Shown: piece after piece, positions 6,778 to 46,290 of the stretch
Numbering within the stretch: the stretch's first letter is position 1
Layout: the number at the start of each line of letters is the position of its first letter
Assembly: GCA_023229385.1 (NCBI GenBank)
Contig: JALNZI010000008.1
Coordinates: 1-56,797 of the forward strand
Direction: 5' to 3'
Source: Candidatus Omnitrophota bacterium
Lineage (GTDB): Bacteria; Omnitrophota; Gorgyraeia; Gygaellales; Profunditerraquicolaceae
DNA: 56,797 nt
Translations under genes and position numbers: made by a program
Notes under the pieces: model-generated
The model's database searches: none
What the model was told of the DNA's origin: nothing
What the model saw: only the letters and a program-made list of their open reading frames with translations

Positions 6778-7101
6778 TTAATTGATTATTTTATTATAAA
6801 TTCCTTTAACTATTCTGTTTAATATTTGCTCATATAAATCTAATTCATATAAAGCAACTATTTTTTGATTTTCTGGATATTTTGTAGTTATATATTCTTT
6901 TCTATTTTTTAAAATATCTTTTAATAAATTAATATAATTTTGACCGGCATACCTATTAATAAAAGGATCATCTATATCTTTATTTTTCCTTTTACGTATA
7001 GTTTTTTCTAATACTTTTTCAGTATTAAATAAAGATAAATTGCTTTTATTTTTTCTAGTTCTTTTCATTATTTTAAATGTAAAGATTGTTTTTCTGCCCA
7101 A
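6778..7101 (-). CDS. hypothetical protein (possible clamp-loader accessory subunit)
   Basis: ORF immediately upstream of the clamp loader. Confidence 0.3.
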   Translation of the reverse strand: MGRKTIFTFKIMKRTRKNKSNLSLFNTEKVLEKTIRKRKNKDIDDPFINRYAGQNYINLLKDILKNRKEYITTKYPENQKIVALYELDLYEQILNRIVKGIYNKIIN

Positions 7102-8453: not shown

Positions 8454-8454
8454 T

Positions 8455-8739
8455 TTATTCTAATTTTCCAACTTTTTTTGAATATTGTAAATATTGTTCA
8501 ATTCTTTCAATTTTTTGAAATCTTAATGTAGGATCAGCAGTATCTAAAATATATACACTACGTAATAATTCAATTATACCTCCAAGATCATTTAATTCTT
8601 TTTCAATAATTTCTTTATTGGTAATGAGTGTAGCAGGATGATGATCATTTAAACCAAAACGTAAAGCTTTAGAAACCGCATGTATTACTTCTGCACATTC
8701 TTCAGAAAGTATTACTAATAAATGTTCTTCTCTTGTCAT
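8455..8739 (-). CDS. MazG-like all-alpha NTP pyrophosphohydrolase
   Basis: LSEECAEVIHAV (EExxE) followed about 28 residues later by EKELND (E-x2-D). Confidence 0.4.
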   Translation of the reverse strand: MTREEHLLVILSEECAEVIHAVSKALRFGLNDHHPATLITNKEIIEKELNDLGGIIELLRSVYILDTADPTLRFQKIERIEQYLQYSKKVGKLE

Positions 8740-9045
8740 TGTATTTTTAATTATTATTTGTTAATTACCCAAGTTAATGCAGCCATTTGTCCTAATAAGT
8801 AACTTATCTCATGATTTAATTCATTTCCTTCACTAGATAATAGATCAATTTGATATAATGAATGCAGTTTTTATCAGTTTTCATTCTTTCTCGATTTAGT
8901 CTTACAATTTTATTACGTATTTTATCTTCTGTTTTCATTTTAATTATTTTTTAAATACGATTATTATAATCATCATTTGATTTTATATAGCATAATAATA
9001 AAAGACAAACTATAATTAATATTATTGTTAATGTTGGTGTCATAA

Positions 9046-10290
9046 TTAAAAAGGTAATGTTAATAATTCAAATTCTTTCATTTGTTTCATAGCTAAACGA
9101 TATTCGTTAATTGAATCATAAGCACAATATTTTAATGTTTCTTTTTTACCTTCCGGTGTTGCAAAATATTCAAGTAAACGATTCATAGAATTTGCATTCT
9201 TTTCATCAATTGCTTGTAAATAAGGTTCCACAGTACTCGAATAATCAATAATGCCAAAATTAACATAGGTTTGAAATTTTAAGTTGGTAATACCTGTACG
9301 ATTATCCAATATATGTGCTGCTAACATAGCATCATGATACCAACTTTTAACCCTAGTTTTTAGTTTAACCCAACTCCAAGTTTCTTCAAATTTCATATTA
9401 TGTGAAAACTTTTTAATATACTTATTATTTAGTAAATTAATAAAAGGTTCTCTTTTTTCAATTTCATTAGGCATTGTAAAAACATAAACATTATCTTCAT
9501 CTGTTGCAACAGAACAACAAACAATTTTATGACTTTTAGCATAAGGTTTTAAACCTGTCGTTTCATAATCAAATGCAATCATTGCATTGTTTGGTATTTG
9601 TTCTAAAACACTTAAATCTGTTATATAATTAATAGTAGGTTCTTGATAAACTGGAAATTCTTTATCTAAAATTGCTAAAGCATTTTTTAAATCTTTTTCA
9701 AATATATTTGCAACTTCTACACGATTACTTTGCTGCACAAATGATGGTAAAAAAACAGGTGCAATCCAACATTTAAGTTCCTGATCAGGTATTATAAAGC
9801 CACGCCATTTATCAATACCTTCCAAAGATTTTTTCCAACGTGAACCAATTACACTTGTTAATGCAATTTTTCCAAACAAAACAATTAACTTAGGTTTGTA
9901 TTGTTGTATGATACGAAAAATATTTAACTGGCAACAACTAATTTCCTTTGCAGTAGGTATTCTACTTTTACCTGTTTCTTTATCATAAGTAAAACAACGT
10001 ACAGCATTTATGTTTATACAATCTTTTTCAATATCAATTCCTAATTTATTATAAACATGATAAATATAATTTTCACTACCCTGAAATGGTTTACTTAATT
10101 GGTCATCTTGAAAGCTTGTAAAGCTACCAATATTCATAATACCTTTTTTAAATTGACCAAAAGGTTCCATTTTAGGGTTAGGGCAATTTATATCATTTTT
10201 ATACAAACCACAACTATAACATGAAAATCCTCTTTTTTTAACAGAGAAATTATCAATTTTTGTTTCTTGTTTTGTAAAGAATCCAGTCAT
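9046..10290 (-). CDS. polA: family A DNA polymerase N-terminal part: UDG family 4-like domain plus 3'-5' exonuclease domain
   Basis: The N-terminal Cys cluster SCYSCGLYKNDINCPNP...KGIMNIGS resembles the family-4 UDG CxxCxL...IGExPG block, with the catalytic GEAPG replaced. Exo I is IAFDYETTGL, Exo II WYHDAMLAAHILD and Exo III YCAYDSINEY. Confidence 0.7.
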   Translation of the reverse strand: MTGFFTKQETKIDNFSVKKRGFSCYSCGLYKNDINCPNPKMEPFGQFKKGIMNIGSFTSFQDDQLSKPFQGSENYIYHVYNKLGIDIEKDCININAVRCFTYDKETGKSRIPTAKEISCCQLNIFRIIQQYKPKLIVLFGKIALTSVIGSRWKKSLEGIDKWRGFIIPDQELKCWIAPVFLPSFVQQSNRVEVANIFEKDLKNALAILDKEFPVYQEPTINYITDLSVLEQIPNNAMIAFDYETTGLKPYAKSHKIVCCSVATDEDNVYVFTMPNEIEKREPFINLLNNKYIKKFSHNMKFEETWSWVKLKTRVKSWYHDAMLAAHILDNRTGITNLKFQTYVNFGIIDYSSTVEPYLQAIDEKNANSMNRLLEYFATPEGKKETLKYCAYDSINEYRLAMKQMKEFELLTLPF

Positions 10291-17784: not shown

Positions 17785-18582
17785 TTAATAGTCTTCTTCG
17801 GAATTAAAATTTTTGCCCATTTCATCAAAAGATGGTATAAACTTTTTATCTTCATTATCATTCCAACTTTTCATTTCGGCAGGATCATCTACCCAACGTT
17901 GTTGGTGAATCCATGTGGCTGGCAATGGTACAAAACCTTTTTTCCAACGTTGTGTTTTTTTCTGTGCTTCTAATGCATTTAAAATTGTAGGCCAACTAGG
18001 TTTTTCACCATTCTTTTTGGCACATAATTTATTCCATTCTGTCAAGGCTTTGCCTTTAACATCTTTTCTTGGGTAAATTTGCCAAAATTCATTAAATTTT
18101 TTGGTAGTTATTGAATCCTTTGTTTTTTGAAAAAATCCGACGTTATCTTTATTAGTACTTAAAGCATTTGTATTAATATTAGTACTTAAAGCATTTGTGG
18201 TGTTATTTTCCTGCGGGTGGATTTTAACACCACTGGCTTTTTGTAATAATGGATGATCTTTCGACCAAATAAATTTAACCTTTGTATAGTACCCAGTTAT
18301 TTGATTATTATTTTCATTTTTTCTTTGTATTGTTTCAATTAAACCCAGTTGAATTAAAATTTTTCTATACTTTTTTACTTTATCACTTCCCCATTTTAAA
18401 GCATCTGCTACATAATCATTTGTAGCTCTAGGAATATTTGTTCTTTGCCATTTAGCTGTGTAGTAATAAAACCAATATAGGCTTAGTAGTTCTGCTGGAT
18501 GGTCTTGTTTTAAAATTAAATCTGATAATGGTTTGCTTAAAACGATAGGTTCTTCGTTTTCATCATAGGATACTTTATTCAT
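17785..18582 (-). CDS. putative replication initiation/replisome organizer protein (winged-helix N-domain)
   Basis: The N-terminal region LSDLILKQDHPAELLSLYWFYYYTAKW...NDYVADALKWGSDKVKKYRKILIQLGLIE is DnaD/replisome-organizer-like. It lies just downstream of an AT-rich intergenic region. Confidence 0.4.
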   Translation of the reverse strand: MNKVSYDENEEPIVLSKPLSDLILKQDHPAELLSLYWFYYYTAKWQRTNIPRATNDYVADALKWGSDKVKKYRKILIQLGLIETIQRKNENNNQITGYYTKVKFIWSKDHPLLQKASGVKIHPQENNTTNALSTNINTNALSTNKDNVGFFQKTKDSITTKKFNEFWQIYPRKDVKGKALTEWNKLCAKKNGEKPSWPTILNALEAQKKTQRWKKGFVPLPATWIHQQRWVDDPAEMKSWNDNEDKKFIPSFDEMGKNFNSEEDY

Positions 18583-20555: not shown

Positions 20556-20888
20556 TTAAATTATTATAAATTTTTCAGAAATAAAATAATCCTTTACTGT
20601 TTTTGTAACAACCATTTCGTTTCTTCTACGACACGTAGCAGATAAGGAAGGTTTACAGAAATAAAAATTTTTTGTTAATATTTCTGGTTCTGGCGTACTT
20701 AAATATTTTTTTAAACCTTTAATGTTAGAATTTTTTTCATTAATACTAACAGCAAAATGTTTATAAATATGTTTGCAAGATTCTTCATAAATAAAAGAAA
20801 CTTCAATTTTTTGATTATTAATTACTTTTAAAAAGTACATTATTCTAATTTTTAAAAAGTTTAAAACTATTTTCTTCATTACATTCAC
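20556..20888 (-). CDS. hypothetical protein
   Basis: ORF. Confidence 0.3.
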   Translation of the reverse strand: MNVMKKIVLNFLKIRIMYFLKVINNQKIEVSFIYEESCKHIYKHFAVSINEKNSNIKGLKKYLSTPEPEILTKNFYFCKPSLSATCRRRNEMVVTKTVKDYFISEKFIII

Positions 20889-24272: not shown

Positions 24273-24488
24273 TTATTGAAGTTTATTCAAGTCTGTATAA
24301 ATATTATATAAATGATACCACAGGTCATTTTGACCTGTTTTCCAAGTACAAAAAGCATTAACCAATTCTAAATTAGAAAGTTGATTAATTGTGTAATCTT
24401 TAGATTGATCTTCCGGTGTTTTTGCACCATGTCTTAGGCGTATTACATCTAATACTCCTAATTTTGCAAGTTTTTCAACATTTTTCAT
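24273..24488 (-). CDS. hypothetical protein
   Basis: ORF with a 4-bp overlap with its neighbours. Confidence 0.3.
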   Translation of the reverse strand: MKNVEKLAKLGVLDVIRLRHGAKTPEDQSKDYTINQLSNLELVNAFCTWKTGQNDLWYHLYNIYTDLNKLQ

Positions 24489-24853
24489 TTTTCTTTGTTT
24501 TTACGTGTTCTTACTTTAATATTCTTAATTAAATCCAGTATTTTTTGAGTAGCAGCATAAACAGAAATTTGTTCATAATTATTAGATTTATCTAAAAACT
24601 GGGTAGTACGACGAGCACACCAGTATATCTTGTAAGGATGATCACTATCAAAACAGGCTGAATACTTTATCTTTATAGGACAACTGCCACAATTATATTT
24701 ATACCGATATTTAGCACAGAAAGGACACTGTGCAGGATGTTCTTTTAATTCAGGAACAGCTTCTTTAAGTTCATCTTTAGTTGCAAAATGATTTTTAACA
24801 AGAAATTCCCATTTTTTAATAGATAATTCTTTCATTTGTGCAATAGTCATATT
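24485..24853 (-). CDS. Cys-rich hypothetical protein (probable start MTIAQMKEL)
   Basis: CPFCAKYRYKYNCGSCPIK...C...WC. The longer 171-aa version overlaps the next ORF. Confidence 0.3.
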   Translation of the reverse strand, partial: NMTIAQMKELSIKKWEFLVKNHFATKDELKEAVPELKEHPAQCPFCAKYRYKYNCGSCPIKIKYSACFDSDHPYKIYWCARRTTQFLDKSNNYEQISVYAATQKILDLIKNIKVRTRKNKEK

Positions 24854-25115: not shown

Positions 25116-25436
25116 TTATATAGAATATTGTTCAATTAAAAAATTTTGTTCATTCTCGCTTAAATCTCCAATAAATATTATATCATCTTCTTTGTGAACA
25201 TAATTTTTTCCTTTTACATTAATAGTGGTAATTTCTGTAATAATGAGCAATGCACCAATAAGAGATTCATAACCCATGCCACTATCAAGTGAACCATCCA
25301 AACCTTTTTCAGCTTGTTCAATAATATCACTTTTAGTTTTAGCATACAATTTTCTTGCAGGGTAACTACCTTTACCACCTCCCCAATAATTACCGTAAAC
25401 AAGTCCTGTTGATTCAAATTTTTTCTTTGTTTTCAT
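25116..25436 (-). CDS. hypothetical protein
   Basis: 106-aa ORF. Confidence 0.3.
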   Translation of the reverse strand: MKTKKKFESTGLVYGNYWGGGKGSYPARKLYAKTKSDIIEQAEKGLDGSLDSGMGYESLIGALLIITEITTINVKGKNYVHKEDDIIFIGDLSENEQNFLIEQYSI

Positions 25437-27166
25437 TTTTCTTTGTTTTTATTAATTTGTAAATAACTATTAACTAATTCCATTATGGTTGATTTATCTT
25501 TATATTTTTTGCCATCAATAACATTATTTATAATTTTTTCTTTTCTATTTGTAATATTAATGATCTTTTCTTCAATGGTATTAATACCGATTAAACGCCA
25601 TATTGTTACAGATTTTGTTTGTGTAATACGATGAATCCTGTCATAGGCTTGTATATGTTGACTAGGATTATACACATACTCAATTATAGCTGCATTAGAA
25701 GCCGCTGTAAGGGTTATCCCAGTCCCGGCAGCTATTATATTACCAAAAAACAAACGCACCTTAGGATCGTTTTGAAAGCTATCTACGGCCTTTTGTTTTT
25801 GCTTATCAGTCATACCACCTTCAACTTTTACAGCATCAGGAAATTTTTCCATTAAATAAGCTAAAGTTTTACGATGGTAGCAAAAGACAACAAGCTTTTC
25901 ATCACTTTCTAAAAAGTTTTCAATCCATTTTACAATTGTATTCAACTTTCCTTTTATTGCAAGTTGACGTAAGATGTTTAGCTGTGCAAGTACGGGCACA
26001 GCTAATGTCTTTTCTAACTTTAAATAAGTGAGTTTATTTATTTCTAAATCTGTTAATTCATTATTAGTTTTTATTTTATTACGCTTTGCAAATTGTTTTA
26101 ATTCCTCTTTAGTTCCTTCACTCATAGAACTAAATTTTTCCTGTAAAAACGTAATAAATGTTTTTTCTGCTTTTTGATATTCAATTTTATTGTCAATAGA
26201 AATATAAACGTTTACTATATTTTTTGGTGGTAAATCTTTTAAAACATCTATTTTTTTACGACGAATCATTATTGTATTTTTCAAAATAGTATTTAATTTT
26301 TTTGTATTTGTTGCACCTGAAAAATCCCAACCAAGCCAAGTTTTTTTAGCTCCACAATATTCTTTTGCAAAATCCATAAAATTTGGAAATAGTGAAGGTC
26401 TAATAAAATGAATAATGTTATAAATTTCAGCAGGACGATTTTCAATTGGTGTACCGGTTAAAGCTAAAGCATAATTAATATCTTTTGTTATTCGTTTAAA
26501 AGCCTTTGTTTTTCTTGCTTTATTATTTTTAATGCTTTGTGCTTCATCAGCAATGATACAATTAAAATCTATATTTTTTAAAGATTGTACCCAGTAGTGA
26601 AGTATATCATAATTCACTACTACAATATCACTTTTAATTTTATATGGTATAACACCGTTTAAAATTTGTGAATCCATTTTTAACCATTTTTTAATCTCAC
26701 GTTGCCAATTTTCTTTTAATCCTGCTTGACAAATAATTAATAATGGAAAAGTATCATATCTTGTTTTTACCCATGAAAGAGCTTCTACTGTTTTTCCCAA
26801 TCCCATTTCATCCGCTATTAAAGCTCTTCCTTGTTTTTTTTCAATTAGTTTAACACATTCTTTTTGAAAATGGTGTAATTTTAATTTTTTAATTTGAGTA
26901 ATTGCTTTTGATTTATTTATATCTTTTCTATTTTCTAATTCTTGTATAAAAATATTTTCCTTTTTCCATTCAATTAATGCTTTAGAGAAAACAAAATTTA
27001 ATTCACTTAATAACAATACTGTATTTTTTGTTAAAGGTGTTTCCCAGAAATCATTTTTAACCATTTTAATTTCTGCTATTGTATTAAGTTTTTCCAATAA
27101 TTTTCTTTCTAAAGGAAAAGTCAGTTTAATTATTTTGCCTTCTTTTATTAATTGAGCTGTTCGCAT
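25433..27166 (-). CDS. SNF2-family (Rad54-like) DEAD/DEAH-box helicase
   Basis: Motif I DEMGLGKT, motif II DEAQSIKN, motif III LTGTPIENRPAEIYN. The C-terminal helicase domain has QKAVDSFQND and GGTGITLTAASNAAIIEY...RIHRITQTKSV. Confidence 0.85.
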   Translation of the reverse strand: MRTAQLIKEGKIIKLTFPLERKLLEKLNTIAEIKMVKNDFWETPLTKNTVLLLSELNFVFSKALIEWKKENIFIQELENRKDINKSKAITQIKKLKLHHFQKECVKLIEKKQGRALIADEMGLGKTVEALSWVKTRYDTFPLLIICQAGLKENWQREIKKWLKMDSQILNGVIPYKIKSDIVVVNYDILHYWVQSLKNIDFNCIIADEAQSIKNNKARKTKAFKRITKDINYALALTGTPIENRPAEIYNIIHFIRPSLFPNFMDFAKEYCGAKKTWLGWDFSGATNTKKLNTILKNTIMIRRKKIDVLKDLPPKNIVNVYISIDNKIEYQKAEKTFITFLQEKFSSMSEGTKEELKQFAKRNKIKTNNELTDLEINKLTYLKLEKTLAVPVLAQLNILRQLAIKGKLNTIVKWIENFLESDEKLVVFCYHRKTLAYLMEKFPDAVKVEGGMTDKQKQKAVDSFQNDPKVRLFFGNIIAAGTGITLTAASNAAIIEYVYNPSQHIQAYDRIHRITQTKSVTIWRLIGINTIEEKIINITNRKEKIINNVIDGKKYKDKSTIMELVNSYLQINKNKEK

Positions 27167-27826: not shown

Positions 27827-28675
27827 TTATATTATTTTATTAAGTTCTTCTTTTGTTATAGAAAAAACAATCTCTGCATTTTGTCCTTTGTGTATTCTCC
27901 ACGTTGTACCATCAAAAGACGGAACAAATCCATTTTCCCATAATGTGATTATGGATTGAAATGGGTTTGTAAATGGTTTCAAAGTTTCAAAATTGTTCCA
28001 TTTTTCTAACATGAAAAATGATGAAATATAAGCATTTACAGAAGCCCCAACAGAAGCCCCAACAGAAGCCCCAACAGAAGCCTCAACAGAAGCCCAAATA
28101 GAATCCCTAACAGAATCCCAAATAGAATCCCTAACAGAAGCCCCAACAGAAGCCCCAACAGAAGCCCAAATAGAATCCCTAACAGAAGCCCAAATAGAAT
28201 CCCTAACAGAAGCCCCAACAGAAGCCCTAACAGAAGCCCCAACAGAAGCCCAAATAAAAGCCCTAACAGAATCCCAAATAGAATCCCAAATAGAATCCCA
28301 TTTTTTTAATAATAATGCTAAATCATTATTATTAAATTTTTCTTTATTGTTTATTAGTAAAGGGCTTATTATAGGTTTTACTATTAAAGGTTCAATAATT
28401 GTTTTAAAATTCAAATATTGTTGTACCCATTTTTTTGATAATTCAGAAGTATCCTTTTCTGTGTTTATTTGATCCACAGTAAACTCCCCGGTTAAAGGAT
28501 TATATTCATACTTGTTCATTTTATCTTCATCTAATTTATAAAATGCACAAATACTTGTGTGAGAATCAGGACTATACCTTTCTGGGTTATTACATAACAT
28601 TTGTTTACGTAATTCCCAATCAAAATAATACTTATTATTATTTTGATCAACAACGAAACTAAAAAAGTTACACAT
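27827..28675 (-). CDS. protein with a tetrapeptide tandem-repeat tract (ASVG/ASVR/DSIW) of about 21 units
   Basis: WDSIWDSIWDSVRAFIWASVGASVRASVGASVRDSIWASVRDSIW...ASVGASVGASV lies between non-repetitive N- and C-terminal domains. Confidence 0.5.
   Translation of the reverse strand: MCNFFSFVVDQNNNKYYFDWELRKQMLCNNPERYSPDSHTSICAFYKLDEDKMNKYEYNPLTGEFTVDQINTEKDTSELSKKWVQQYLNFKTIIEPLIVKPIISPLLINNKEKFNNNDLALLLKKWDSIWDSIWDSVRAFIWASVGASVRASVGASVRDSIWASVRDSIWASVGASVGASVRDSIWDSVRDSIWASVEASVGASVGASVGASVNAYISSFFMLEKWNNFETLKPFTNPFQSIITLWENGFVPSFDGTTWRIHKGQNAEIVFSITKEELNKII
28020..28300. repeat. 12-bp tandem repeats (acagaagcccca / acagaatcccaaat variants)
   Basis: A directly visible 12-bp period. It encodes the tetrapeptide repeats. 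Confidence 0.8.
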
Positions 28676-30850: not shown

Positions 30851-31477
30851 CTACTGTACAGGTTCAGCAGGTGCATTAAAATACAGGTCCCCTTTACGGA
30901 TAGCATGCAGTTTGCTCAAGTACGACTTTGTTACTGAGCCGTCCTCGTCTGGATAAACCGCTAATACGGCATCTAAAATAGTTTTGTAGGTAACCCCTTC
31001 CGGGTGTGCCGTTAAGCAATCCAGAATAATACTCCTCTTTGTAACTTTGTCACCCGTAATAGTAGTTGTACCTGTTGAACTGTTTTTTCTCGTTCTGATA
31101 ACCTTTGCCGGTACGTTTGCCGGCAACGTGGTGTTAATAATCATCCACAACCCCTGAAAGGTTGTGAACTCCCCGTCTGTAAGCTGCTGAATCAATTCAG
31201 CCTTTTTTGTTTGCACCTTTGCAACCTCATCTTTTTTGTCTTGCTCAGCTTTTTTTGCAGCGGCATCAATAGCAGCTAATTTCTTTTCGTTCGCCATTAC
31301 CTTTGCTAATTTTGCAACTTCGGCGAAGTCACCGGCAGCTAATGCGGCCGCCAGTTTTTCCGCTGTTGTCGGCTCTATTATCGCCGGTTCTGTTGTTGAT
31401 ACGTTGTTTGTTACTTCCGTCGCTGCATTTTCGGCAGCGGTAACAATTTGTTCTTTTGTTAATGAATCTTTAGACAT
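30851..31477 (-). CDS. Ala/Lys/Glu-rich protein (histone-H1-like low-complexity N-half) with markedly higher GC than its surroundings
   Basis: AEKLAAALAAGDFAEVAKLAKVMANEKKLAAIDAAAKKAEQDKKDEVAKVQTKKAEL. The gene has GC-rich codons (gccggcaacgtggtg, gcggccgccag), its own terminator and upstream palindromes. Confidence 0.5.
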   Translation of the reverse strand: MSKDSLTKEQIVTAAENAATEVTNNVSTTEPAIIEPTTAEKLAAALAAGDFAEVAKLAKVMANEKKLAAIDAAAKKAEQDKKDEVAKVQTKKAELIQQLTDGEFTTFQGLWMIINTTLPANVPAKVIRTRKNSSTGTTTITGDKVTKRSIILDCLTAHPEGVTYKTILDAVLAVYPDEDGSVTKSYLSKLHAIRKGDLYFNAPAEPVQ

Positions 31478-31500
31478 TTTTTCTTTGTTTTTAAATTAGT

Positions 31501-31544
31501 AAAGCAAAATTGCTTTGTGCCTGTACCGGAATCGGACCGGTACA
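31501..31544. promoter_or_regulatory. two adjacent palindromes (possible operator/terminator)
   Basis: AAAGCAAAATTGCTTT (31501-31516) and TGTACCGG-aatcgga-CCGGTACA (31522-31544). They lie between gene 31568-31774 and the start of gene 30851-31477. Confidence 0.35.
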
Positions 31545-31567
31545 AAGAACCGTTCAGGCTAATAAAA

Positions 31568-31774: not shown

Positions 31775-31785
31775 AATATTAAGTT

Positions 31786-31814
31786 GTTTATCACTGTTAT
31801 CACTTGCAAATATA
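31786..31814 (-). promoter_or_regulatory. candidate leftward promoter/operator: tandem TGTT(T)ATCAC direct repeat plus TATATTTG (-7-like TAnnTTTG) on the minus strand
   Basis: gtttatcac (31786-94) and tgttatcac (31795-803). The rc of caaatata at 31807-31814 is TATATTTG, 33-40 nt upstream of the ATG at 31774. Confidence 0.3.
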
Positions 31815-31960
31815 TGTAATATTATAATACGTTGTACTCATTAATGCAAAAAAATTTAAAAAAAAATTAAATGTATTATAACGTATTAATACACAGTAAG
31901 TTACAACCTTAAATGACTTATATCATAGTATATATATTACTTAACATAATTAAATAACAC

Positions 31961-32130
31961 TATAAAAAGCAATATAAGGCAATTCACCAGGTAAAAGCCT
32001 AATAACCCAACCTGACTATAATAAAGGCTTAAATAGCCTTATAATGCAAAATAAAGGCTATTCAACCAGGTAACCCATATAATAGTATAACAACCTATAA
32101 AAAGGCAATAAGGCACAATAAAAAATAAAG
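31961..32130. repeat. iteron-like cluster: at least 7 copies of (T)AAGGC/GCCTT plus 2 copies of CCAGGTAA within 170 bp
   Basis: ataaggcaa, caccaggtaaaagcct, taaaggctt, atagcctta, taaaggcta, caaccaggtaac, aaaaggcaa and taaggcac. Confidence 0.5.
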
Positions 32131-32947
32131 AAGCAATATGAGTAAATGGTAAAGTAAAGGTATATATTCATCCATATAGTATAATATAGTAATATATGTT
32201 ATAATACAATAAAAAGAATAAAAATATAGTGAAAAATGTAAAAAAGAATAAAAAAGCCGCGCCCGCTTAGCTTCCACACTTTGTTTCTGTACCACACCAA
32301 TATCACTATGATAAGCTATTCATGTACTAATGATATGCTATTCACAACGAATGTTATACTATACTCTATATATAGTATATATACATACCACTGCACTAGC
32401 TCTGTTCACTGCGATTAGCAGGAATAATTGTTATATATAGTAGTGTGCCGAGGTGAAGGGAAGATCAGGTGAATGTGAATGGCGAAAATGGAAAGAGGTT
32501 TGATGGGCTTGTACCTCTCATAGAATATATAAATTTTTTTGATGAATACAAATTTTATTTATTCATTAAAGGCTTGTTATTATTATTTGACGATTCATAT
32601 TGAAAAAAACGAATAAGTATTATATTATAATATAGTATATATAATAGTAATATGTATATACTATATATGGTAAAAATTGTTTTCATTATGATTTATATAT
32701 TCATTATTATATTCTATTCACTATTTATATTCATTATTATTAATATATTTTATTTACCTTTTTTCATTAATATTATTCATTTTACAATTCATAAAAAAAA
32801 TTTGAAAAAATTTTTTAAGGTTTTCAAAAATTAATATTCATTATTGATTATTTATATTGTATAATAAAAATTTTTATTTAATATTGTTAAATGTGTATAT
32901 TATGTTTATCTATATAAGGATTGCTAAAAAAATTTTATGTTTTTTAT

Positions 32948-32977
32948 TTTGTTATATACTATTATATATTATATTTG
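32948..32977 (+). promoter_or_regulatory. candidate Bacteroidota-type promoter for the rightward late operon (TTTG-N18-TATATTTG)
   Basis: TTTG at 32948-51 and TATATTTG at 32970-77, 19 nt upstream of the terminase small subunit ATG at 32996. Confidence 0.35.
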
Positions 32978-32995
32978 TTTGCAAATGTATTTTTT

Positions 32996-33601
32996 ATGGC
33001 TAAAAATAGAACCATACGTTTGCCTGAACCGGATTTCTTACCTAAGAAAACTTTACGTCGTACTGATGGTCGTTATCAACCTGTATATGATAGGCAGGTT
33101 TATTTCTTAGCATTGTTAGGAATGACAGAGCCACAGATGGCACAAGTATTCAATGTACAATTTAATAATTTTTTGGTTTGGAAGGAAAAATATCCTTTAT
33201 TTGCTGAAGCATTAATTAAAGGGAAAACTTCGGCTGATGGCAACGTAGTACATTCATTATATTTATCGGCCATAGGTTTTAAGCATAAAGAAACTGTTGT
33301 ATTAACCAATAAGGTTAAGAAATATAATAGTGCAGGTAAAGTAACTAAGGAATGGACCGAACCTTTATTGGTTGAAGTGGAAAAAGAGGAACCACCAAGT
33401 GTTAATGCCTGTTTGAAGTGGTTACAAGCCCGTCAGCCAGCCGTATGGGGTAACAGGCTACATATTGACGGTAAACTTAATGTAACCCATCAAATTGACT
33501 TAACGGACTTCACGACAGAAGAATTACTAGTACTTAATAAATTAGGTATGGCTAGTAAAGATGGTAAGATTGTTGAAGATGCTTTATATGAAGATGTTTA
33601 A
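32996..33601 (+). CDS. terS: terminase small subunit (HTH)
   Basis: Lies immediately upstream of the large terminase gene. It has an HTH-like segment TEPQMAQVFNVQFNNFLVWKEKYPLFAEALIKGK. The start is taken at the MAKNRTIRL Met, because the longer ORF N-terminus is low-complexity. Confidence 0.5.
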   Translation: MAKNRTIRLPEPDFLPKKTLRRTDGRYQPVYDRQVYFLALLGMTEPQMAQVFNVQFNNFLVWKEKYPLFAEALIKGKTSADGNVVHSLYLSAIGFKHKETVVLTNKVKKYNSAGKVTKEWTEPLLVEVEKEEPPSVNACLKWLQARQPAVWGNRLHIDGKLNVTHQIDLTDFTTEELLVLNKLGMASKDGKIVEDALYEDV

Positions 33602-33612
33602 ATAATAATAGT

Positions 33613-35160
33613 ATGGAAGTAACATTGGTCAGAACAAAACGTAATAGGGTTAAACCTGTGGAATCGAAAGAATCACGGGCAAAACTTGTTCTGACCAATC
33701 CTTTAGCCATACAAAAAGAATTAAATAATCGTTCGTTATATGAGTTTTTGAAATGGGCTTGGCCTGAAATTAGCAATGCACCATTTGTTGAAAACTGGCA
33801 TTTACCTTATTTATGTAGTGAATTGGAGCAAGTAGCATACCAAGTAGGTGAACGCAGGAAAAAGGATCATGATTTATTGATTAACATTTCACCGGGTTCA
33901 ACAAAGACTATATTATGCTGTATTGTATTTCCTGCATGGTGTTGGACCAAATGGTATTGGATGCGGTTTATTACAGCTTCGTATTCAGCACAATTAGCAT
34001 TGGAAGCTGCTGATTATAGTAGGGATTTAATAAAATCCCAGATATTTAGGGAAATGTATCCTGAAATTGATATTAAACCTGATAAAGACACAAAATCAAA
34101 CTATAAGATTGTACGTAGGGTAGTTAGTCCTACTTCTGAATTTTATACAAGAGAATGGTTAGGCGGTAATAGGTTTACTACTTCGGTAGGTGGTACGGCA
34201 ACCGGTTTTCATGGTGATATATTAATATGGGATGATGCTTTAAACCCTGAACAAGCACTTTCAGACAAAGAAATAGAAACTGCAAACCATTGGGTTGACC
34301 ATACTTTAAGCACACGTAAAACTAATAAAGCTATTAGTGTAACCATAGGTATTATGCAGAGGTTACACCAAAACGATCCTTCAGGCCATTTATTAGCTAA
34401 AAAGAAAAAGAATTTACGGCATATATGTATGCCGGGCGAAATATTACATTTTAAAGAAGCTTTACAACCACCAGAATTAGCACAATATTATAAAGACGAT
34501 TTATTTGATGCAAATCGAATGAATTGGAATACATTGCACGAGCTTGAAACAGACTTAGGCCAATATGGTTATGCCGGGCAGATAGGGCAAATACCTTCAC
34601 CACCGGGTGGTGGGATGTTCAAGGTTGAACATTTTCAAATGACAAGTGAAATATTCCCAAAAGATTTTTATATACGTAGTGTACGTTATTGGGATAAAGC
34701 TGGTAGTGCAAATAAAGGGGCTTATACAGTTGGTGTAAAGATTTCACTATTAAAGAATAAATTATTTATTATTGATGACGTTAAACGTGGTCAATGGAGT
34801 TCTGAAAAACGTGAATCTATTATAAGGCAAACTGCTGAAGTTGATGGAAGAAAATGTTGGGTGGTTGTAGAACAGGAACCAGGTAGCGGCGGTAAAGAAT
34901 CTGCTGAAAATACTATTAAGAATTTAGCAGGATTTCTTGCTGAGGCTGATAAACCATCTGGTGATAAAGCTGAACGTGCTGATCCTTTAAGTGTACAGGT
35001 TAATAATGGTACAATATTAATGAGGATTGCTGATTGGAATAAGGAATTTAAGGATGAATTTGAATTGTTTCCAAATTCTGTATATAAGGATCAAGTAGAT
35101 GCTACTTCCGGTGGATTTAATTTTTTGGTTAAGAAAAAAATTGCAAGACGTTTAGTTTAA
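33613..35160 (+). CDS. terL: terminase large subunit
   Basis: ATPase Walker A-like INISPGSTKT and Walker B ILIWDDALNP. C-terminal RNaseH-like nuclease VVVEQEPGSGGKES...DQVDATSGG. Confidence 0.85.
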   Translation: MEVTLVRTKRNRVKPVESKESRAKLVLTNPLAIQKELNNRSLYEFLKWAWPEISNAPFVENWHLPYLCSELEQVAYQVGERRKKDHDLLINISPGSTKTILCCIVFPAWCWTKWYWMRFITASYSAQLALEAADYSRDLIKSQIFREMYPEIDIKPDKDTKSNYKIVRRVVSPTSEFYTREWLGGNRFTTSVGGTATGFHGDILIWDDALNPEQALSDKEIETANHWVDHTLSTRKTNKAISVTIGIMQRLHQNDPSGHLLAKKKKNLRHICMPGEILHFKEALQPPELAQYYKDDLFDANRMNWNTLHELETDLGQYGYAGQIGQIPSPPGGGMFKVEHFQMTSEIFPKDFYIRSVRYWDKAGSANKGAYTVGVKISLLKNKLFIIDDVKRGQWSSEKRESIIRQTAEVDGRKCWVVVEQEPGSGGKESAENTIKNLAGFLAEADKPSGDKAERADPLSVQVNNGTILMRIADWNKEFKDEFELFPNSVYKDQVDATSGGFNFLVKKKIARRLV

Positions 35161-35164
35161 TGTT

Positions 35165-36652
35165 ATGGAACATAAAAGAAAAATAAGACCTATTTCTACT
35201 AATAAAGAAAAATTTGTTATTGACAGTAACAAATATCCTTTATTTAGTGCTTTAAGTGAGTTAACCGCACGTCTGCAATTAGCTTCACAATTGGGAGTTG
35301 ATACATATAGCGGTGATAGGGATATTTATCAAGCATTAGGTTATCCTAAAACGCTTATATGGGAAAATTATTGGGCAAGATATAAAAGACATGATATAGC
35401 GAAGGCTATTATTGATCGTCCTGTTAAAGCTTCATGGAAAGGTAATATTGAAGTTATTGAAACTATTAAAAAAGAAGAAACACCATTTGAAAAAGCATGG
35501 GTTGAATTATTTAATAGGTTAAAATTAAAATCTATTTTTATACGTTCAGATAAATTAACTGGTATTGGCCGTTATTCTGTATTATTCTTAGGTTTAAATG
35601 ATACACAAAAAACTGAAGATTTAGCTGGACCTGTTAAAATAAAACAAGGATTAAAATTATTATATGTAAAACCTTTATCAGAAAATACAGCACAAATACA
35701 ATCATTTGATGAAAATCCAGCAAGTGAACGTTATGGTTTACCTTTAACATATAATATAGCCATTGCTGTTGGTGAATTTAAAAGTGCAACAGTCTTAGTA
35801 CATTATTCAAGGGTTATACATTTTGTTGAAGAAGTTGTTGAAGATGAAGTTTATGGTACGCCTCGTTTAGAAGCTGTATATAATCGTTTAATTGATTTGG
35901 AAAAACTTGTTGGTGGTGATGCTGAAATGTTTTGGCGTGGTGCAAGACCGGGTTATACTGGTGAAGTTAAGGATGATTATCAAATGACACCTGAGACACT
36001 TGCAGATTTAAAAACTCAAATAGATGAATTTGAAAATAATCTTAGGCGTGTATTAATAAATGAAGGAGTTAAATACAATGCTTTAACACAGCAAATTTCT
36101 GATCCTGCAAATCATGTTGACATACAAATTCAAATGGTTAGTGCTGTAACTGGTATTCCTAAAAGAATATTAAGTGGTTCAGAACGTGGTGAGTTAAGTT
36201 CAGCACAAGATAAATTGGAATGGATTTCTTATGTTGCTTCAAGACGTGAGGAACAGAATGAACCAATGATTTTAAGACCATTCATTGATAAATGTGTTGA
36301 AATTGGTTTATTACCAAAACCTAAAACAGCATATATTATTGTATGGGATAAATTATTTAGTTTATCAGATAAGGAAAAGGTTGAAATTGGTCGTTTACGT
36401 GCTGAGGCAATAAAATCTTATGGAACTTCATCTTCACAAGATTTATTTCCATTAGATTTATTCTGTAAATTATTTTTGAATTTTGATGATACACAAATTG
36501 CAGAAATAATGGATAGGCGTAAGGAAGGATTTGAAGATGAAGATGAGATGATAAAAGATACTGAAGATGGTACGGGTGGTATAGGTAGAACACCACAATT
36601 ATCACCTATACCAGTTTCACGTACTGTTGATTTAGATAAACGTGGGGGATAA
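35165..36652 (+). CDS. portal protein
   Basis: Position after the large terminase and a size of 495 aa. Portal-like core VHYSRVIHFVEE...GTPRLEAVYNRLIDLEKLVGGDAEMFWRGARPG. Confidence 0.75.
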   Translation: MEHKRKIRPISTNKEKFVIDSNKYPLFSALSELTARLQLASQLGVDTYSGDRDIYQALGYPKTLIWENYWARYKRHDIAKAIIDRPVKASWKGNIEVIETIKKEETPFEKAWVELFNRLKLKSIFIRSDKLTGIGRYSVLFLGLNDTQKTEDLAGPVKIKQGLKLLYVKPLSENTAQIQSFDENPASERYGLPLTYNIAIAVGEFKSATVLVHYSRVIHFVEEVVEDEVYGTPRLEAVYNRLIDLEKLVGGDAEMFWRGARPGYTGEVKDDYQMTPETLADLKTQIDEFENNLRRVLINEGVKYNALTQQISDPANHVDIQIQMVSAVTGIPKRILSGSERGELSSAQDKLEWISYVASRREEQNEPMILRPFIDKCVEIGLLPKPKTAYIIVWDKLFSLSDKEKVEIGRLRAEAIKSYGTSSSQDLFPLDLFCKLFLNFDDTQIAEIMDRRKEGFEDEDEMIKDTEDGTGGIGRTPQLSPIPVSRTVDLDKRGG

Positions 36653-43059: not shown

Positions 43060-43515
43060 ATGGTAGAACGTAAAAGAATTAGAAACGATGTAACAATTAA
43101 AATGCCTATTGTTGAAGAACAAATAGTTACGGATGAAGAAAAAGAAAAAATTGCTATTGAAGAAAAAGCATTTAATGAAGAAGTAACAACAGTAAAGTCA
43201 GAACTAATTGAACGTAAACCGATACGATGGAAAAAAGTAGGTGGTGGAAGTTTTTCTTTAAATAATCGGTTTATTAAACCGGGACAAATATTTTTAGCAT
43301 TTCCAGAAGAAATACCTGTTCAATTTCGTGATCTTGTTATTCCTTTAGAAGAAAAACCTTTACCTTTAAATATTGAAGAAATTAAAAAGAAATCATCTTA
43401 TAAGTTAGAGGAAAAATCTGATGGATGGGATATTTTAGATTCTTTTGGTAAGGTTTTAAATGAAAAACCAATGGAGAAAGAAGTTGCTGAACGTATTTTA
43501 GTTATGTTACAATGA
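43060..43515 (+). CDS. charged 151-aa protein carrying a roughly 50-aa module also present inside the 1084-aa glycosyltransferase fusion
   Basis: RKPIRWKKVGGGSFSLNNRFIKPGQIFLAFPEEIPVQFRDLVIPLEE here, versus IRKPIRWKKMGNGSFLFNNCYIKKNQVFTAFSEDIPKQFRDVIIPLEE at about 47815-47960. Confidence 0.5.
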   Translation: MVERKRIRNDVTIKMPIVEEQIVTDEEKEKIAIEEKAFNEEVTTVKSELIERKPIRWKKVGGGSFSLNNRFIKPGQIFLAFPEEIPVQFRDLVIPLEEKPLPLNIEEIKKKSSYKLEEKSDGWDILDSFGKVLNEKPMEKEVAERILVMLQ

Positions 43516-44207
43516 TATGGTCCGTACCTAAAATATGGGAAGGTGGTGATGCTTGGATATTAGGTGGTGGACCATCTATTATTGATCAATTTAATATACC
43601 TAAAGAGGTGTCAGAAAAGGTATTATTGAAACAATTACCTTTGTCTGCATATTCAAGTTATATGAAACTTATTCATGATAAACATGTTATAGGTATAAAT
43701 ATAGCTTATTTAATAGGTAATTGGATTGATATTGTATTTTTTGGAGATAAAAATTTTTATCTTACACATAAGGAAGGTTTGTTTAATTTTCCGGGATTAA
43801 AAATTAGCTGTAATCCAGAAGTTGAAAAATGTTTTTGGATAAAATATTTAGCACAAGATAAAGCTAAACATTTAGGAATTACAACAAATCCAAAAATGAT
43901 TAGTTGGAATAAAAATAGTGGAGCTGCTGCTATAAGTTTGGCTGTTCATACAGGAGTTAAAAGAATATTTCTTTTAGGTTTTGATATGAAATTGAATGAT
44001 GCAAATAAACAGCATTGGCATAGTGAATATAAAAATCCACAAGAACCATTAAATTTAAGAAAGTTGCCATTTCAAAGACATTTAACTGGTTTTCCTAGTA
44101 TTTATAAAGATGCAAAGAATCTAAATGTACAAATTTACAATGTAAATTCAGATAGTGCAATTACACAATTTCCATGTATTAATTTAAAAGAAGCTTTGGA
44201 ATTATGA
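43512..44207 (+). CDS. putative Rossmann-type glycosyl/sugar-nucleotide transferase (DUF115/MptE-like)
   Basis: GGDAWILGGGPS...HVIGINIAYL...GAAAISLAVHTGVKRIFLLGFDM. The GxGPS and LGxD blocks are typical of that family. Confidence 0.35.
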   Translation: MIWSVPKIWEGGDAWILGGGPSIIDQFNIPKEVSEKVLLKQLPLSAYSSYMKLIHDKHVIGINIAYLIGNWIDIVFFGDKNFYLTHKEGLFNFPGLKISCNPEVEKCFWIKYLAQDKAKHLGITTNPKMISWNKNSGAAAISLAVHTGVKRIFLLGFDMKLNDANKQHWHSEYKNPQEPLNLRKLPFQRHLTGFPSIYKDAKNLNVQIYNVNSDSAITQFPCINLKEALEL

Positions 44208-45409
44208 AAATTATAAATTGTCCAATTAGTGGTAGTGAAAAAGGGGTAGAATTTCTTAATTTAGGAAAAATACCACTTGTAAATAATTTATGTGATACAA
44301 AACAAGACGCATTAAATTGTGAAAAGTTTTCATTAGCTGTTCAGTTTTTTCCTGAAAGTAAAGTTACTTGTTTAACAGAAACGGTGGATAAGGACAATTT
44401 ATTTCTTCATTATTTGTATCAATCGGGTGTAAATAAGCCTTATTTAGATCATTGTGCTGAAATGTATGATTATTTATCCCATATTATTGATTTTAAAGAC
44501 AAAGATGTTGTATTAGACATTGGTGGAAATGATGGTAGTTTATTAAAAGAATTTAGAAAGGAAAATCAAAATCTTCATTATATAAATGTTGATTGCAGTC
44601 GTAGTTTTATTGATGTTAATCGAGAATCTGGAATTGAATATATTAACGAATATTTTGGTGAAAGTATATCTTTACCATATAAAGCTAAGTTGATTACATC
44701 AACAAATGTATTTCAACACACGGAACCCATACGTTCATTCGTAAAAGGTATTTGTAGGAATTTGTCAAATGAAGGTGTTTGGTGTTTGGAATTTCCTTAT
44801 ATTCTTACAACACTTGCAAATGATAATTATGATCAGGTTTATCATGAACATGTGTATTATTTTTGTTTACAGAATATAATTGATATAACAAAACAAGAAG
44901 GCTTAAAAGTCATTAATGTTTCTTATCATGATATGCACGCTGGAACATTGCGAGTTTTAATTGTGAAAGAATCTTCACGCAGACAACCAGATAATACAAT
45001 ACTTTCTTTTCTTAATTTGGAAAAAACACTAACAAAAGAATACTATTTGAAGTGGGGATCACAAACAACATCGAAAATTAAGCAATATCAGGTAGATATG
45101 AAAAGACTTGTTATGAATGGTGCAAAGGTTGCTTGTTTTGGTGCTGCTGCAAAAGGGTGCATCTTTTTAAATACTTGTGAAATAGATAACACAATGGTAC
45201 AATTTATTATTGATGATACTCCTTTTAAGCAAGGTAAATTTGTTCCGGGAACAGGAATAGAAGTTGTAAGCAGAAAAATATTAAAAGATGTTAAAATAGA
45301 TTATATGATTATTCTTGCTCATAATTTTAAAGATTATATAATAAATTCATTAAAGGGGCAATATAATGGTAAATATATTTTAATGTTTCCTGATATGAAA
45401 ATATTATAA
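44204..45409 (+). CDS. sugar C-methyltransferase family protein (TylC3/EvaC-like; N-terminal Zn-like domain, SAM-binding domain, C-methyltransferase C-terminal domain)
   Basis: NCPISGSEKGVEFLNLGKIPLVNNL resembles CxxCGSxxLxxVLDLGxQPLAN. Motif I is VVLDIGGNDGSLL. The C-terminal domain is CFGAAAKGCIFLN...IDDTPFKQGKFVPGTGIEVVS...MIILAHNFKDYI. Confidence 0.65.
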   Translation: MKIINCPISGSEKGVEFLNLGKIPLVNNLCDTKQDALNCEKFSLAVQFFPESKVTCLTETVDKDNLFLHYLYQSGVNKPYLDHCAEMYDYLSHIIDFKDKDVVLDIGGNDGSLLKEFRKENQNLHYINVDCSRSFIDVNRESGIEYINEYFGESISLPYKAKLITSTNVFQHTEPIRSFVKGICRNLSNEGVWCLEFPYILTTLANDNYDQVYHEHVYYFCLQNIIDITKQEGLKVINVSYHDMHAGTLRVLIVKESSRRQPDNTILSFLNLEKTLTKEYYLKWGSQTTSKIKQYQVDMKRLVMNGAKVACFGAAAKGCIFLNTCEIDNTMVQFIIDDTPFKQGKFVPGTGIEVVSRKILKDVKIDYMIILAHNFKDYIINSLKGQYNGKYILMFPDMKIL

Positions 45410-45432: not shown

Positions 45433-46290
45433 ATGCTAACAGCTAGCAATATCGAAAAAATTTGTATTGTCACAGTATTTGATAGACATTATAAAGAAGC
45501 AGGGAAAACTTTGTTTAATTCAATCAGAAGGCATACAAATTGTGATGGAATAGATTTTAAAGTTATTACATCAGATGAGGAAGTATTAAATGAATGGGGA
45601 AAGGATAATTGTTATTTTGTAACGGATAATATTAAAAATAGGTATAAGAATGTTCAATATTCTAAGGATTTACCTATTGAGCGATATGCTTTATCATGGT
45701 ACAGATATGAAATATTCAATATGACTGATTACGATAGAGTAATATGTATTGATTCTGATTGTATATGTGTTCAAGATATTAGTTATTTATTTAGTGAAGA
45801 ATTAAATCAGTATGATCTTATTTCTGTTGAAGATCATTTTGTATCAAAAATACTACCTAATTTATATTCTAAATTAGAAAAGAATGGTTGGAACTTTACA
45901 AATTTATACAAAAGGGTTTCTTTAAAACAAGTTGATATTCAACCTGCTGTACTTGTAATTAATAAGAATGTCATAAATAGTATATGGTATAATGAGTTAT
46001 TAGCTTATGCTAATAATACGGGTTTTACTTATTCTATTGATCAAGGTATTCTAAATGATTTTATTTATCAAAAAAATATAAATATCAAATTACTACCGTT
46101 GGAATGGAATTATCAAGACCTTTATGCTATTCGTTGTTCAGAACTTGCAGTAGTTAATCCAATTATAATTCATTGTCAAGAATCCAAACCTTTTAAACTT
46201 GTTAGAAAAAATGTAGATGTACGAATACAAAAATTTTATGATCAATGGTGGTATGAATATGATTATGCCAAATCATTGAAAACAACAACA
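45433..46290 (+). repeat. internal duplication, copy 1 of the GT8-like domain
   Basis: About 60-70% nt identity to 46294-47110. It includes an exact 42-bp match at 45775-45816 (gatattagttatttatttagtgaagaattaaatcagtatgat). Confidence 0.8.

Follow-up and report, generated by a model that had tools for sequence, protein, structure and literature searches.

A repeat-rich non-coding hub between the divergent gene arms of an uncultured phage: a probable control region and possible replication origin

The stretch of DNA analyzed here, called the window, is a complete contig of 56,797 bp that was deposited within a metagenome-assembled genome (MAG) labelled Candidatus Omnitrophica and is a phage. Between its leftward arm of early and replication genes and its rightward arm of packaging and structural genes lies a non-coding region (31775-32995), termed the hub, which ends directly in front of terS, the gene for the small terminase subunit. 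The available evidence supports the hub as an early/late control region between divergent modules, as an initial annotation had proposed: the flanking arms diverge, the stretch is non-coding, promoter-like motifs face outward, and blocks of the hub are 90-96% identical in relatives, compared with 86% for the DNA of a neighbouring gene that encodes a 208-amino acid (aa) protein. We tentatively consider the hub as a composite cis-acting region in which the control region also serves as an origin of replication, with a probability of about 0.35. The origin function is favoured by an unwinding-prone segment, a candidate for bent DNA, a GC clamp, conserved cores and the precedent of the c2-type phages. 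Origin, packaging and switch functions are not mutually exclusive.

Extent, composition and coding status of the hub

The hub had been described as the longest intergenic gap of the window, and this is borne out. If ATG-initiated open reading frames (ORFs) with a length of 50 aa or more on the expected strand are taken as genes, the longest stretches without a gene are 31775-32651 and 32835-32995, which are separated only by a spurious ORF of 60 aa; the next largest gene-free gap measures 327 bp. The reported AT-richness is equally real, since the hub has a GC content of 22% compared with ~29% for the window. Its right part (32577-32976) is the lowest-GC 400 bp of the window, with 11.7% GC as against 18.8% for the next lowest 400 bp, and the least stable 100-bp segment of the contig starts at 32618.

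The ORFs within the hub do not exceed 66 aa and are built of AT-rich codons. One of them (32095-32295, minus strand) is interrupted by a 55-bp insertion in two related phages, L057 and L059, and the 60-aa ORF (32652-32834, plus strand) is truncated by +2 and +1 indels in L068, a relative with 98.8% identity. In a third ORF of 44 aa (32469-32603, plus strand) the differences among relatives are all non-synonymous, which indicates that constraint at this place acts on the nucleotides and not on a protein; the surrounding DNA is almost invariant. As judged from these alignments, the hub encodes no conserved protein, and it is not tiled by small expressed ORFs, because those present are broken by indels in close relatives.

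Repeat families and motifs

Repeat enrichment was judged against dinucleotide shuffles, 1000 of the region and 100 of the window, and the main families exceed these shuffles. The most conspicuous family is palindromic. Blocks of ATATAGTATA-type repeats had been noted at ~32175, 32355 and 32630; they are present, and the family was understated. The 8-mer ATAGTATA occurs eight times in the hub compared with four times in the other 55.6 kb, a number matched by none of 1000 shuffles, and an unbiased k-mer scan returned it as the most enriched 8-mer. When variants are included, eleven sites of the 9-bp palindrome TATA(G/C)TATA are spread over the whole hub (1.1 kb). A further family, TATTCA(T), had escaped the initial annotation; all ten of its hub copies are on the plus strand, and again no shuffle out of 1000 reaches this number.

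A cluster of AAGGC/GCCTT pentamers within 31961-32130 is likewise present, albeit with six copies (31976, 32024, 32036, 32054, 32102 and 32110) instead of the at least seven that had been counted; the seventh lies at 32569. Six copies in 170 bp make up the densest AAGGC/GCCTT cluster of the whole window, and this density was reached by none of the 1000 region shuffles and none of the 100 window shuffles. The two reported copies of CCAGGTAA were found at 31987 and 32066 (the window holds three, counting both strands), and both sit in a degenerate direct repeat of ~78 bp (31970-32046 and 32047-32125). The GC clamp AAGCCGCGCCCGCTT is present at 32254-32268. The purine-rich block was recovered in part: GGTGAA is enriched, while GAATGG occurs once and is not.

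The outward-facing TAnnTTTG motifs exist at both edges, in DNA so AT-rich that the motif is common by chance. On the minus strand the motif (31814-31807) is located 33 nt before the ATG of a 68-aa ORF, and on the plus strand (32970-32977) 18 nt before the ATG of terS. As a genome-wide promoter signal, TAnnTTTG was discarded; 10 of 76 genes carry it within 80 nt upstream, compared with ~6 expected from a rough frequency-based estimate, which is a weak enrichment. The scan for canonical terminators retrieved no terminator-like site in the hub. The GC clamp also fails the scan criteria for an intrinsic terminator, as it forms a weak, bulged minus-strand hairpin that uses part of a T run. Searches of the window and the hub for tRNA and tmRNA genes found none, and a search against Rfam gave no match at the gathering threshold and two chance-level matches at E values up to 10.

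Conservation in close relatives

The same phage, with at least 99.7% identity, is present in four other assemblies, and every one of these contigs starts inside the hub. Three further lineages were found by the hub DNA pattern and by protein look-up: L068 (98.8% identical), L059 and L057 (~81-86%) and L063 (~76%). Their alignment shows conserved and variable blocks that alternate sharply. The left block (31775-31972) is 83-87% identical, the first copy of the ~78-bp repeat (31973-32039) 54-57% and the second copy (32040-32125) 85-94%, followed by an indel zone after 32125 with 40-69%. Identity then rises to 95% in a block of A-tracts and palindromes (66% in L063), to 90-95% in the GC clamp and the adjoining core a, and to 82-90% in core b. 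The most conserved block, called core2 (32469-32560, plus strand), reaches 93.5-95.7%, even in L063, and the first 165 bp of the AT-rich part are 97% identical in L059. Most palindrome copies are retained, L057 and L059 gain another one within their 55-bp insertion, and single G/C changes at the palindrome centre flip its orientation. L063 lacks exactly 10 bp in the A-tract array, so that the phase is kept. In the AT-rich right part, even L068 differs by small indels.

In L063, a different gene occupies the first leftward position, yet the similarity picks up again precisely at its start codon. Because of this restart, and because hub blocks are more similar than the 86% of the neighbouring gene, much of the hub is either under stronger constraint than its flanks or was recently exchanged.

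The hub is also the place where contigs of these phages break. Eight out of eight short contigs (L001-L004, L057, L059, L063 and L068) end inside it. The ends of identical or near-identical phages are scattered over 31915-32859, with overlaps of up to 850 bp, and three strains share one sample (Ga0172381). For these reasons, the breaks probably reflect assembly-graph tangles at blocks common to co-occurring strains, and a reading of the contig ends as physical termini was rejected.

Distant relatives keep the layout with repeats of their own

For a wider comparison, 52 loci were found through TerL, at 48-73% identity. Where enough upstream sequence is available, nearly all loci show an AT-rich gap of 0.6-2.2 kb without ORFs before terS, and in most of them the genes to its left are divergent. 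The architecture is seen in at least 15 relatives. No DNA of these gaps can be aligned with the hub of the window. Instead, the gaps have specific repeats: ACCATATA seven times and GTTAAGTA six times in L006, AAACCTACAAGAA in L008 and L010, TATGAATA six times in L013, ATGATAGAAA in L020 and AATTACGC in L039. The order of modules in L006 and L010 resembles that of the hub. Repeats of 52-62 bp on the left hold the same relative place as the ~78-bp repeat, the mid-gap repeats are of the type TATATGGTAGTA, which is related to the hub palindrome, and 30-bp tandem repeats near terS take a place in L010 that is equivalent to the AT-rich segment.

Core2 alone has sequence relatives outside the close lineages. 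Weak but position-consistent nhmmer matches were found in the terS-upstream gaps of L012, L013 and L020, with the consensus GGCGG..TGGAA..TTGWACCYCYC..ATATAYA..TTTTTT. The motif TATATTTG or near variants of it occur 25-47 nt before terS in the window and in L018, L020, L006, L008 and L010. In most relatives, an island rich in G or GC is additionally found ~320-740 bp before terS, and G4-like runs occur there in L006, L010, L018 and L054.

As a separate observation, runs of G3-6 that resemble G-quadruplexes, e.g. GGGGCGGGGAGGGGCGGGCGGGGCGGGG, are located at 4647-4680 in L010, ~4692-4720 in L006, 3630-3690 in L018, 4553-4600 in L054 and 1-150 in L055. They sit mid-gap, where the window has merely a weaker purine-rich block.

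Control region, origin or both

In the composite reading, the promoters from which the two arms are transcribed outward would be located at the edges of the hub. The eleven TATA(G/C)TATA sites would act like operators, at which a DNA-binding protein specific to the phage decides between early and late transcription, and the 208-aa protein encoded next door (30851-31477, minus strand) is a candidate for this protein. The A-tract array, the GC clamp, the cores and the 400-bp AT-rich segment could provide the place at which the duplex is opened for replication initiation, possibly helped by transcription across the AT-rich segment, as in the non-coding origin of c2-type phages. The terS-proximal part may additionally be read by the terminase.

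The initial annotation had seen in the hub an iteron origin with a DNA-unwinding element. The unwinding-prone element is real (32577-32976, with the least stable DNA from 32618) and adjoins the repeats as an iteron origin demands, but relatives lend no support to AAGGC iterons. Iteron origins have at least three conserved, regular repeats of ~17-22 bp, and AAGGC is a 5-mer within a two-copy repeat of ~78 bp.

Several further results also weigh against the composite reading. The first half of the AAGGC/CCAGGTAA cluster is the part with 54-57% identity in relatives, so that the pentamers as such do not qualify as conserved iterons. Boxes for DnaA (TTWTNCACA) are missing from 31775-32995; the window contains 14 of them, as many as in shuffles. 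The initiator gene is not adjacent and its repeats are not found in the hub, whereas an iteron origin would be expected to show one or the other. This gene (17785-18582, minus strand; DnaD/O-like, phrog_270) is 14 kb away and has in its middle a 27-bp tandem direct repeat (TATTAGTACTTAAAGCATTTGT...; 18150-18203), with a third partial copy at 18396-18407. No copy of the 27-bp repeat was found in the hub, allowing up to three mismatches, or elsewhere in the window. Since an internal repeat in an initiator gene is a classical origin position, 18150-18203 is a candidate for a rival origin. Origins inside the initiator gene are known from lambda O, SPP1 gene 38 and lactococcal rep genes. The GC-skew analysis suggested by the initial annotation placed the cumulative minimum in the hub; it coincides exactly with the flip in gene strand and is inseparable from it. 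Because all left genes are on one strand and all right genes on the other, GC skew proves nothing about the origin.

The control elements are subject to similar reservations. Promoter-like matches in the hub are no more frequent than in shuffles, and neither the TATTCA nor the ATAGTA family shows significant helical phasing. The 208-aa protein has no sequence or profile matches in PHROG, Pfam or PDB, and two AlphaFold runs ended with low confidence (pLDDT ~52), so that no fold was established. Within the L006/L010 lineage, conservation of the hub does not exceed that of the DNA on either side, and for this reason the high conservation seen in the hub of the close relatives could be due to recent mosaic exchange.

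Other readings of the hub

A first alternative assigns the right half of the hub, i.e., core2, the purine- or G-rich island and the AT-rich TATTCA segment, to a pac or cos site read by TerS, and leaves promoters and regulatory sites to the left part. In lambda, SPP1 and phages of lactic acid bacteria, cos and many pac sites are located upstream of terS, and the right half of the hub is directly upstream of terS, which starts at 32996. For the right half alone, this position makes a packaging site an equally good reading. The G-rich or GC-rich island of most relatives fits in, as do the lineage-specific repeats between island and terS (TATTCA in the window, the 30-bp tandem repeats in L010, TATGAATA in L013). 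Core2 alone remains detectable in phages at ~65-72% TerL identity, always in the terS-upstream gap, and the N-terminal half of TerS is 51-54% identical in L012 and L013, which have core2 matches, versus 43-44% in L006-L011 at equal TerL identity; these are few data points, and L020 has a core2 match, yet only 44% identity in this half. Two of the six genome-length relatives (L048 and L055) start in the gap, without terminal overlap; a search for their other ends via the SNF2 helicase retrieved unrelated contigs only. The SPP1/Mu-F set of minor-head genes and the T1-like distant TerL relatives fit headful packaging from a pac site. On the other hand, no defined termini were seen. The contig ends spread from 31915 to 32859, and the presence of several strains in one sample is enough to explain them. 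In addition, the distance of ~440-530 bp between core2 and terS is long, the TATTCA phasing is not significant, and the pac site of P22, Sf6 and partly of SPP1 lies inside terS. Considering both sides, a packaging site together with promoters on the left is a serious though rather unlikely reading of the hub.

A purely transcriptional switch is a second alternative, which we regard as a serious though rather unlikely one. Divergent promoters and palindromic operator arrays would then be the only content of the hub, with the origin at 18150-18203 and pac inside terS. The outward promoter-like motifs at both edges, which recur before terS in relatives, would agree with this, and the initiator-gene repeat offers a conventional origin elsewhere. 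The eleven region-specific palindrome sites come in direct and inverted pairs that are typical of operators, and a fast-evolving protein family is encoded beside TAT[AG]GTA-rich gaps (window, L006, L010 and L029). The palindrome, however, hardly differs from a plain (TA)n tract into which a single G/C has been inserted, and no recognizable regulator with a helix-turn-helix or ribbon-helix-helix fold and no sigma factor was found among the genes scanned. Furthermore, 1.2 kb far exceeds the need of two promoters and their operators, and the 400-bp segment with 12% GC, the A-tract array, the GC clamp and core2 would be without obvious role.

It is very unlikely that the conserved centre (~32250-32560) represents one or two non-coding RNA genes for a regulatory RNA or a replication primer. 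In its favour, ~300 ORF-free bp are conserved to 82-96% and a GC-rich hairpin followed by a T run is present on the minus strand (32275-32240). The origin of c2-type phages also requires a non-coding transcript. In that origin, an ORF-free stretch lies between the promoters PE1 and PE2 (PMC7150918). Nevertheless, Rfam gives no match at the gathering threshold, a canonical terminator is missing, and folding energies are no better than those of shuffles (z = +0.72 and -0.11). Folds of the alignment contain no compensatory pairs on the minus strand and four dubious ones on the plus strand, with a covariation term that is close to zero or unfavourable. A structured RNA in the conserved centre was therefore rejected after single-sequence and alignment folds of both strands had given no signal.

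The least probable reading, a largely functionless AT-rich spacer with repeats from slippage in TA-rich DNA and conservation from recent recombination between strains, could draw on the (TA)n-like palindrome, the indels of the AT-rich right part even in L068 and the unremarkable conservation of the L006/L010 hub, but it is at odds with a long gap of the same modular layout across the TerL range examined, with the sharp alternation of conserved and variable segments, and with the detection of core2 in more distant relatives.

The 208-aa protein and the tRNA-like element

The candidate hub-binding protein of 208 aa belongs to a small, fast-evolving family. It has one close homologue among 5.8 billion proteins. 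A profile of its C-terminal ~70 residues connects it to 18 proteins in the databases as well as to the proteins encoded at the corresponding place in L006, L010, L029 and L025. Family members are encoded beside the gap in the window, L057, L006, L010, L029 and L025; their N-terminus forms a long helix, and the motif AGxEGIS..I...L.A.YP is located within the ~70 C-terminal residues. The gaps with the densest TAT[AG]GTA motifs are those of the window, L006, L010 and L029, and this co-occurrence is suggestive only of a connection between the family and the motif.

A separate observation concerns the DNA between the 68-aa ORF and the 208-aa gene, where the minus strand contains a tRNA-like 'top-half' element (31498-31562). 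It precedes the gene, and likewise its homologues, by ~20 nt. An acceptor-like stem and a linker of 11 nt are followed by a 7-bp stem that is closed by a T-loop-like heptaloop, by NCAA and by a second small hairpin. The heptaloop (UYCGAYU) reads UCCGAUU in the window and UUCGAUU or UUCGACU in relatives. Copies are present in L057 (1381-1445 and 3037-3102), L063 (90-157), L013 (921-989) and L029 (4210-4272). When four copies were used to build a covariance model, it recovered independent copies in L013 and L029. Both of these lie directly 5' of a gene of the 208-aa family, and compensatory changes occur in both stems. Neither ARAGORN nor Rfam recognizes the element, which may be a processing signal of the RNase P/Z type or a regulatory leader.

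A more unified picture, which we regard as distinctly speculative, would make the hub a single nucleoprotein organizing centre. In this case, the 208-aa family would coat the palindromes and couple the transcription switch, the opening of the 12%-GC segment and the loading of the terminase, and its own synthesis would be controlled via the tRNA-like leader.

Part-by-part map of the hub

The left conserved block (31775-31972, minus strand) is 83-87% identical in each of L059, L057 and L063 and is interpreted as holding the leader and the promoter of the leftward operon. It contains TATATTTG (31814-31807, minus strand) and a sigma-70-like TTTGCA-18-TATAAT (31850-31821, minus strand), both of them promoter matches at the consensus level only, as well as A-tracts (31848-31866) and an ATAGTATA site at 31925. 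It is followed by the degenerate ~78-bp direct repeat (31970-32125, plus strand) with its AAGGC/GCCTT pentamers and the two CCAGGTAA copies, within which a small palindrome, AAGGCTTAAATAGCCTT, is located at 32024-32040.

The TATA(G/C)TATA family extends over 31925-32965 on both strands. Its ATAGTA cores are found at 31925, 32082, 32176, 32186, 32372, 32437, 32632 and 32644 on the plus strand and at 32357, 32659 and 32957 on the minus strand. Direct pairs are formed at 32176/32186 and 32632/32644, and inverted pairs by 32355-32363 with 32372-32380 and by 32630-32641 with 32655-32666.

Five A5-6 tracts (32211-32255, plus strand) start at 32211, 32220, 32232, 32240 and 32250, with a spacing of 8-12 bp and a mean of ~9.75. 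This array is a candidate for intrinsically bent DNA; its phasing is marginal, as 70 of 2000 random sets do equally well in a post hoc test. The GC clamp (32254-32268) is invariant in all relatives except for one flanking base. The conserved core a/b (32256-32440), which is 82-95% identical in three other lineages and contains no surviving ORF, carries CCACAC twice (32282 and 32293), the 15-nt direct repeat ATGATA(A/T)GCTATTCA (32308 and 32330) and the central inverted palindrome pair.

A variable purine-rich spacer (GCCGAGGTGAAGGGAAGATCAGG; 32441-32468, plus strand) with 33-70% identity in relatives leads to core2, which contains the hairpin AGAGGT/ACCTCT (32494-32499 and 32513-32518), in which the four loop bases alone vary, and then CATAGAATATATAAATTTTTTTGATGAATAC. 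The AT-rich, easily melted segment (32561-32976, plus strand; ~12% GC) is associated with six of the ten TATTCA(T) copies (32560, 32698, 32715, 32728, 32774 and 32835, plus strand). The hub ends with the promoter-like TATATTTG at 32970-32977 and a short leader before terS (32970-32995, plus strand).

The phage contig and its gene arms

The contig is that of a siphovirus with its own replisome. As relatives in IMG/VR reach ~69-75 kb, it probably covers ~80% of one genome, and the 56.8-kb contig has no terminal overlap. To the left of ~31.8 kb, every substantial ORF is on the minus strand; this early and replication arm encodes a RuvC-like resolvase, a UvsX-like recombinase, a clamp loader, a DNA polymerase in two ORFs, a sliding clamp, a DnaB-like helicase, the DnaD/O-like replication initiator, a primase and an SNF2 helicase. 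From 32996 rightward, all substantial ORFs are on the plus strand. The packaging and structural arm starts with terS (32996-33601, ATG at 32996), followed by terL (33613-35160) and the portal gene (35165-36652), an assignment based on phrog_309, phrog_38, phrog_146 and PF06381. Beyond the portal, it encodes a Mu-F/SPP1 gp7-like head protein, a major head protein, connector proteins, a major tail protein and a tail chaperone.

The window has no DNA similarity to deposited phages. The nearest cultivated TerL relatives are phages of Bacteroidota (Cellulophaga, Riemerella and Croceibacter) with 35-38% identity, and more distant ones include T1-like phages. Together with the TAnnTTTG motifs, these TerL relatives give a hint of a Bacteroidota host. 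The MAG label was rejected as a guide to the host; relatives (L106-L109 among them) were binned with Omnitrophica, Hyphomicrobiales, Deltaproteobacteria, Paceibacterota and Bacteroidales MAGs, so the labels, which represent phage contigs swept into bins, are uninformative on the host.

Some observations concern the arms themselves. Three enzyme-like genes are located inside the structural arm on the plus strand: a sialyltransferase-like gene (43512-44207), one with weak similarity to tRNA methyltransferases (44204-45409) and one encoding 1084 aa with a C-terminal methyltransferase domain (45433-48687). The two minus-strand ORFs of the DNA polymerase (7068-8453 and 9046-10290) match successive parts of phrog_17 and are parted by ~590 bp (8454-9045), including an ORF-free stretch with 12% GC (8932-9031). 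Possible explanations are that the gene is split, that an intron or intein has left a remnant, or that some element has been inserted. A 282-aa protein (27827-28675, minus strand) has a long, nearly perfect tandem peptide repeat (DSIWASVGASVRAS...), and a 68-aa ORF of GLLL repeats overlaps its gene on the same strand. An A-rich motif similar to TAAAAACAAAGAAAAAATG directly precedes several early genes on the minus strand (20712-20744, 24478-24503, 25432-25452 and 31478-31497); it is also found in L057 and may be a shared translation-initiation or leader signal.

Significance and comparison with known systems

In this uncultured phage group, most of which is known from metagenomes of anaerobic digesters and sediments, a search for the origin, for the packaging signal and for the early/late switch would naturally begin at the hub. 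The modules described here indicate which of its fragments are worth cloning or footprinting, and they probably also account for the breaks in assemblies of these phages. The general understanding is unchanged, since phages are well known to have extended non-coding regions full of repeats that serve as control regions or origins between divergent modules.

The closest counterpart is the origin of Ceduovirus (c2-type) phages, an ORF-free intergenic region between divergent early and late modules that is more than 90% conserved within groups and unrelated between them, and that supports plasmid replication (PMC7150918). Like the hub, it is non-coding, located between divergent early and late modules and equipped with repeats and with promoters, which in the hub are putative, and it shares the pattern of conservation within a group and dissimilarity between groups (PMC7150918). 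The two have no sequence similarity. In c2-type phages, cos and the terminase-binding repeats are located at the other genome junction, whereas here terS abuts the hub; moreover, the c2-type origin needs no phage initiator, whereas this phage encodes an initiator, helicase, primase, polymerase, clamp and clamp loader.

The packaging sites of lambda (cosQ-cosN-cosB) and SPP1 (pacL-pacC-pacR) resemble the hub by their position immediately upstream of the small terminase gene and by AT-rich DNA, bent in those sites and possibly so in the hub, with several short repeats between a GC-richer element and terS. The hub candidate is several-fold longer and has unrelated repeat sequences. Initiator-embedded origins, such as lambda ori in O, SPP1 oriL in gene 38 and those in the rep genes of lactococcal P335-type phages, are comparable to the repeat at 18150-18203 in the phrog_270 gene. 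This candidate, 14 kb from the hub and with no repeat in common, competes with the hub and does not describe it.

In the early/late control region of phi29 (p4/p6) and in lambdoid operators, divergent promoters are parted by multiple palindromic or inverted sites that a phage regulator binds, as is putatively the case in the hub. Those regions comprise ~0.2 kb with three to four sites, while the hub has 11 sites over 1.1 kb. Finally, oriF and oriG of T4 combine a promoter with a downstream unwinding element for R-loop priming. Core2 matches no known promoter consensus; yet the hub offers a similar order, with the promoter-like core2 followed by the most easily melted DNA, and the phage encodes T4-like accessory replication proteins, namely a UvsX-like recombinase, a clamp and a clamp loader.

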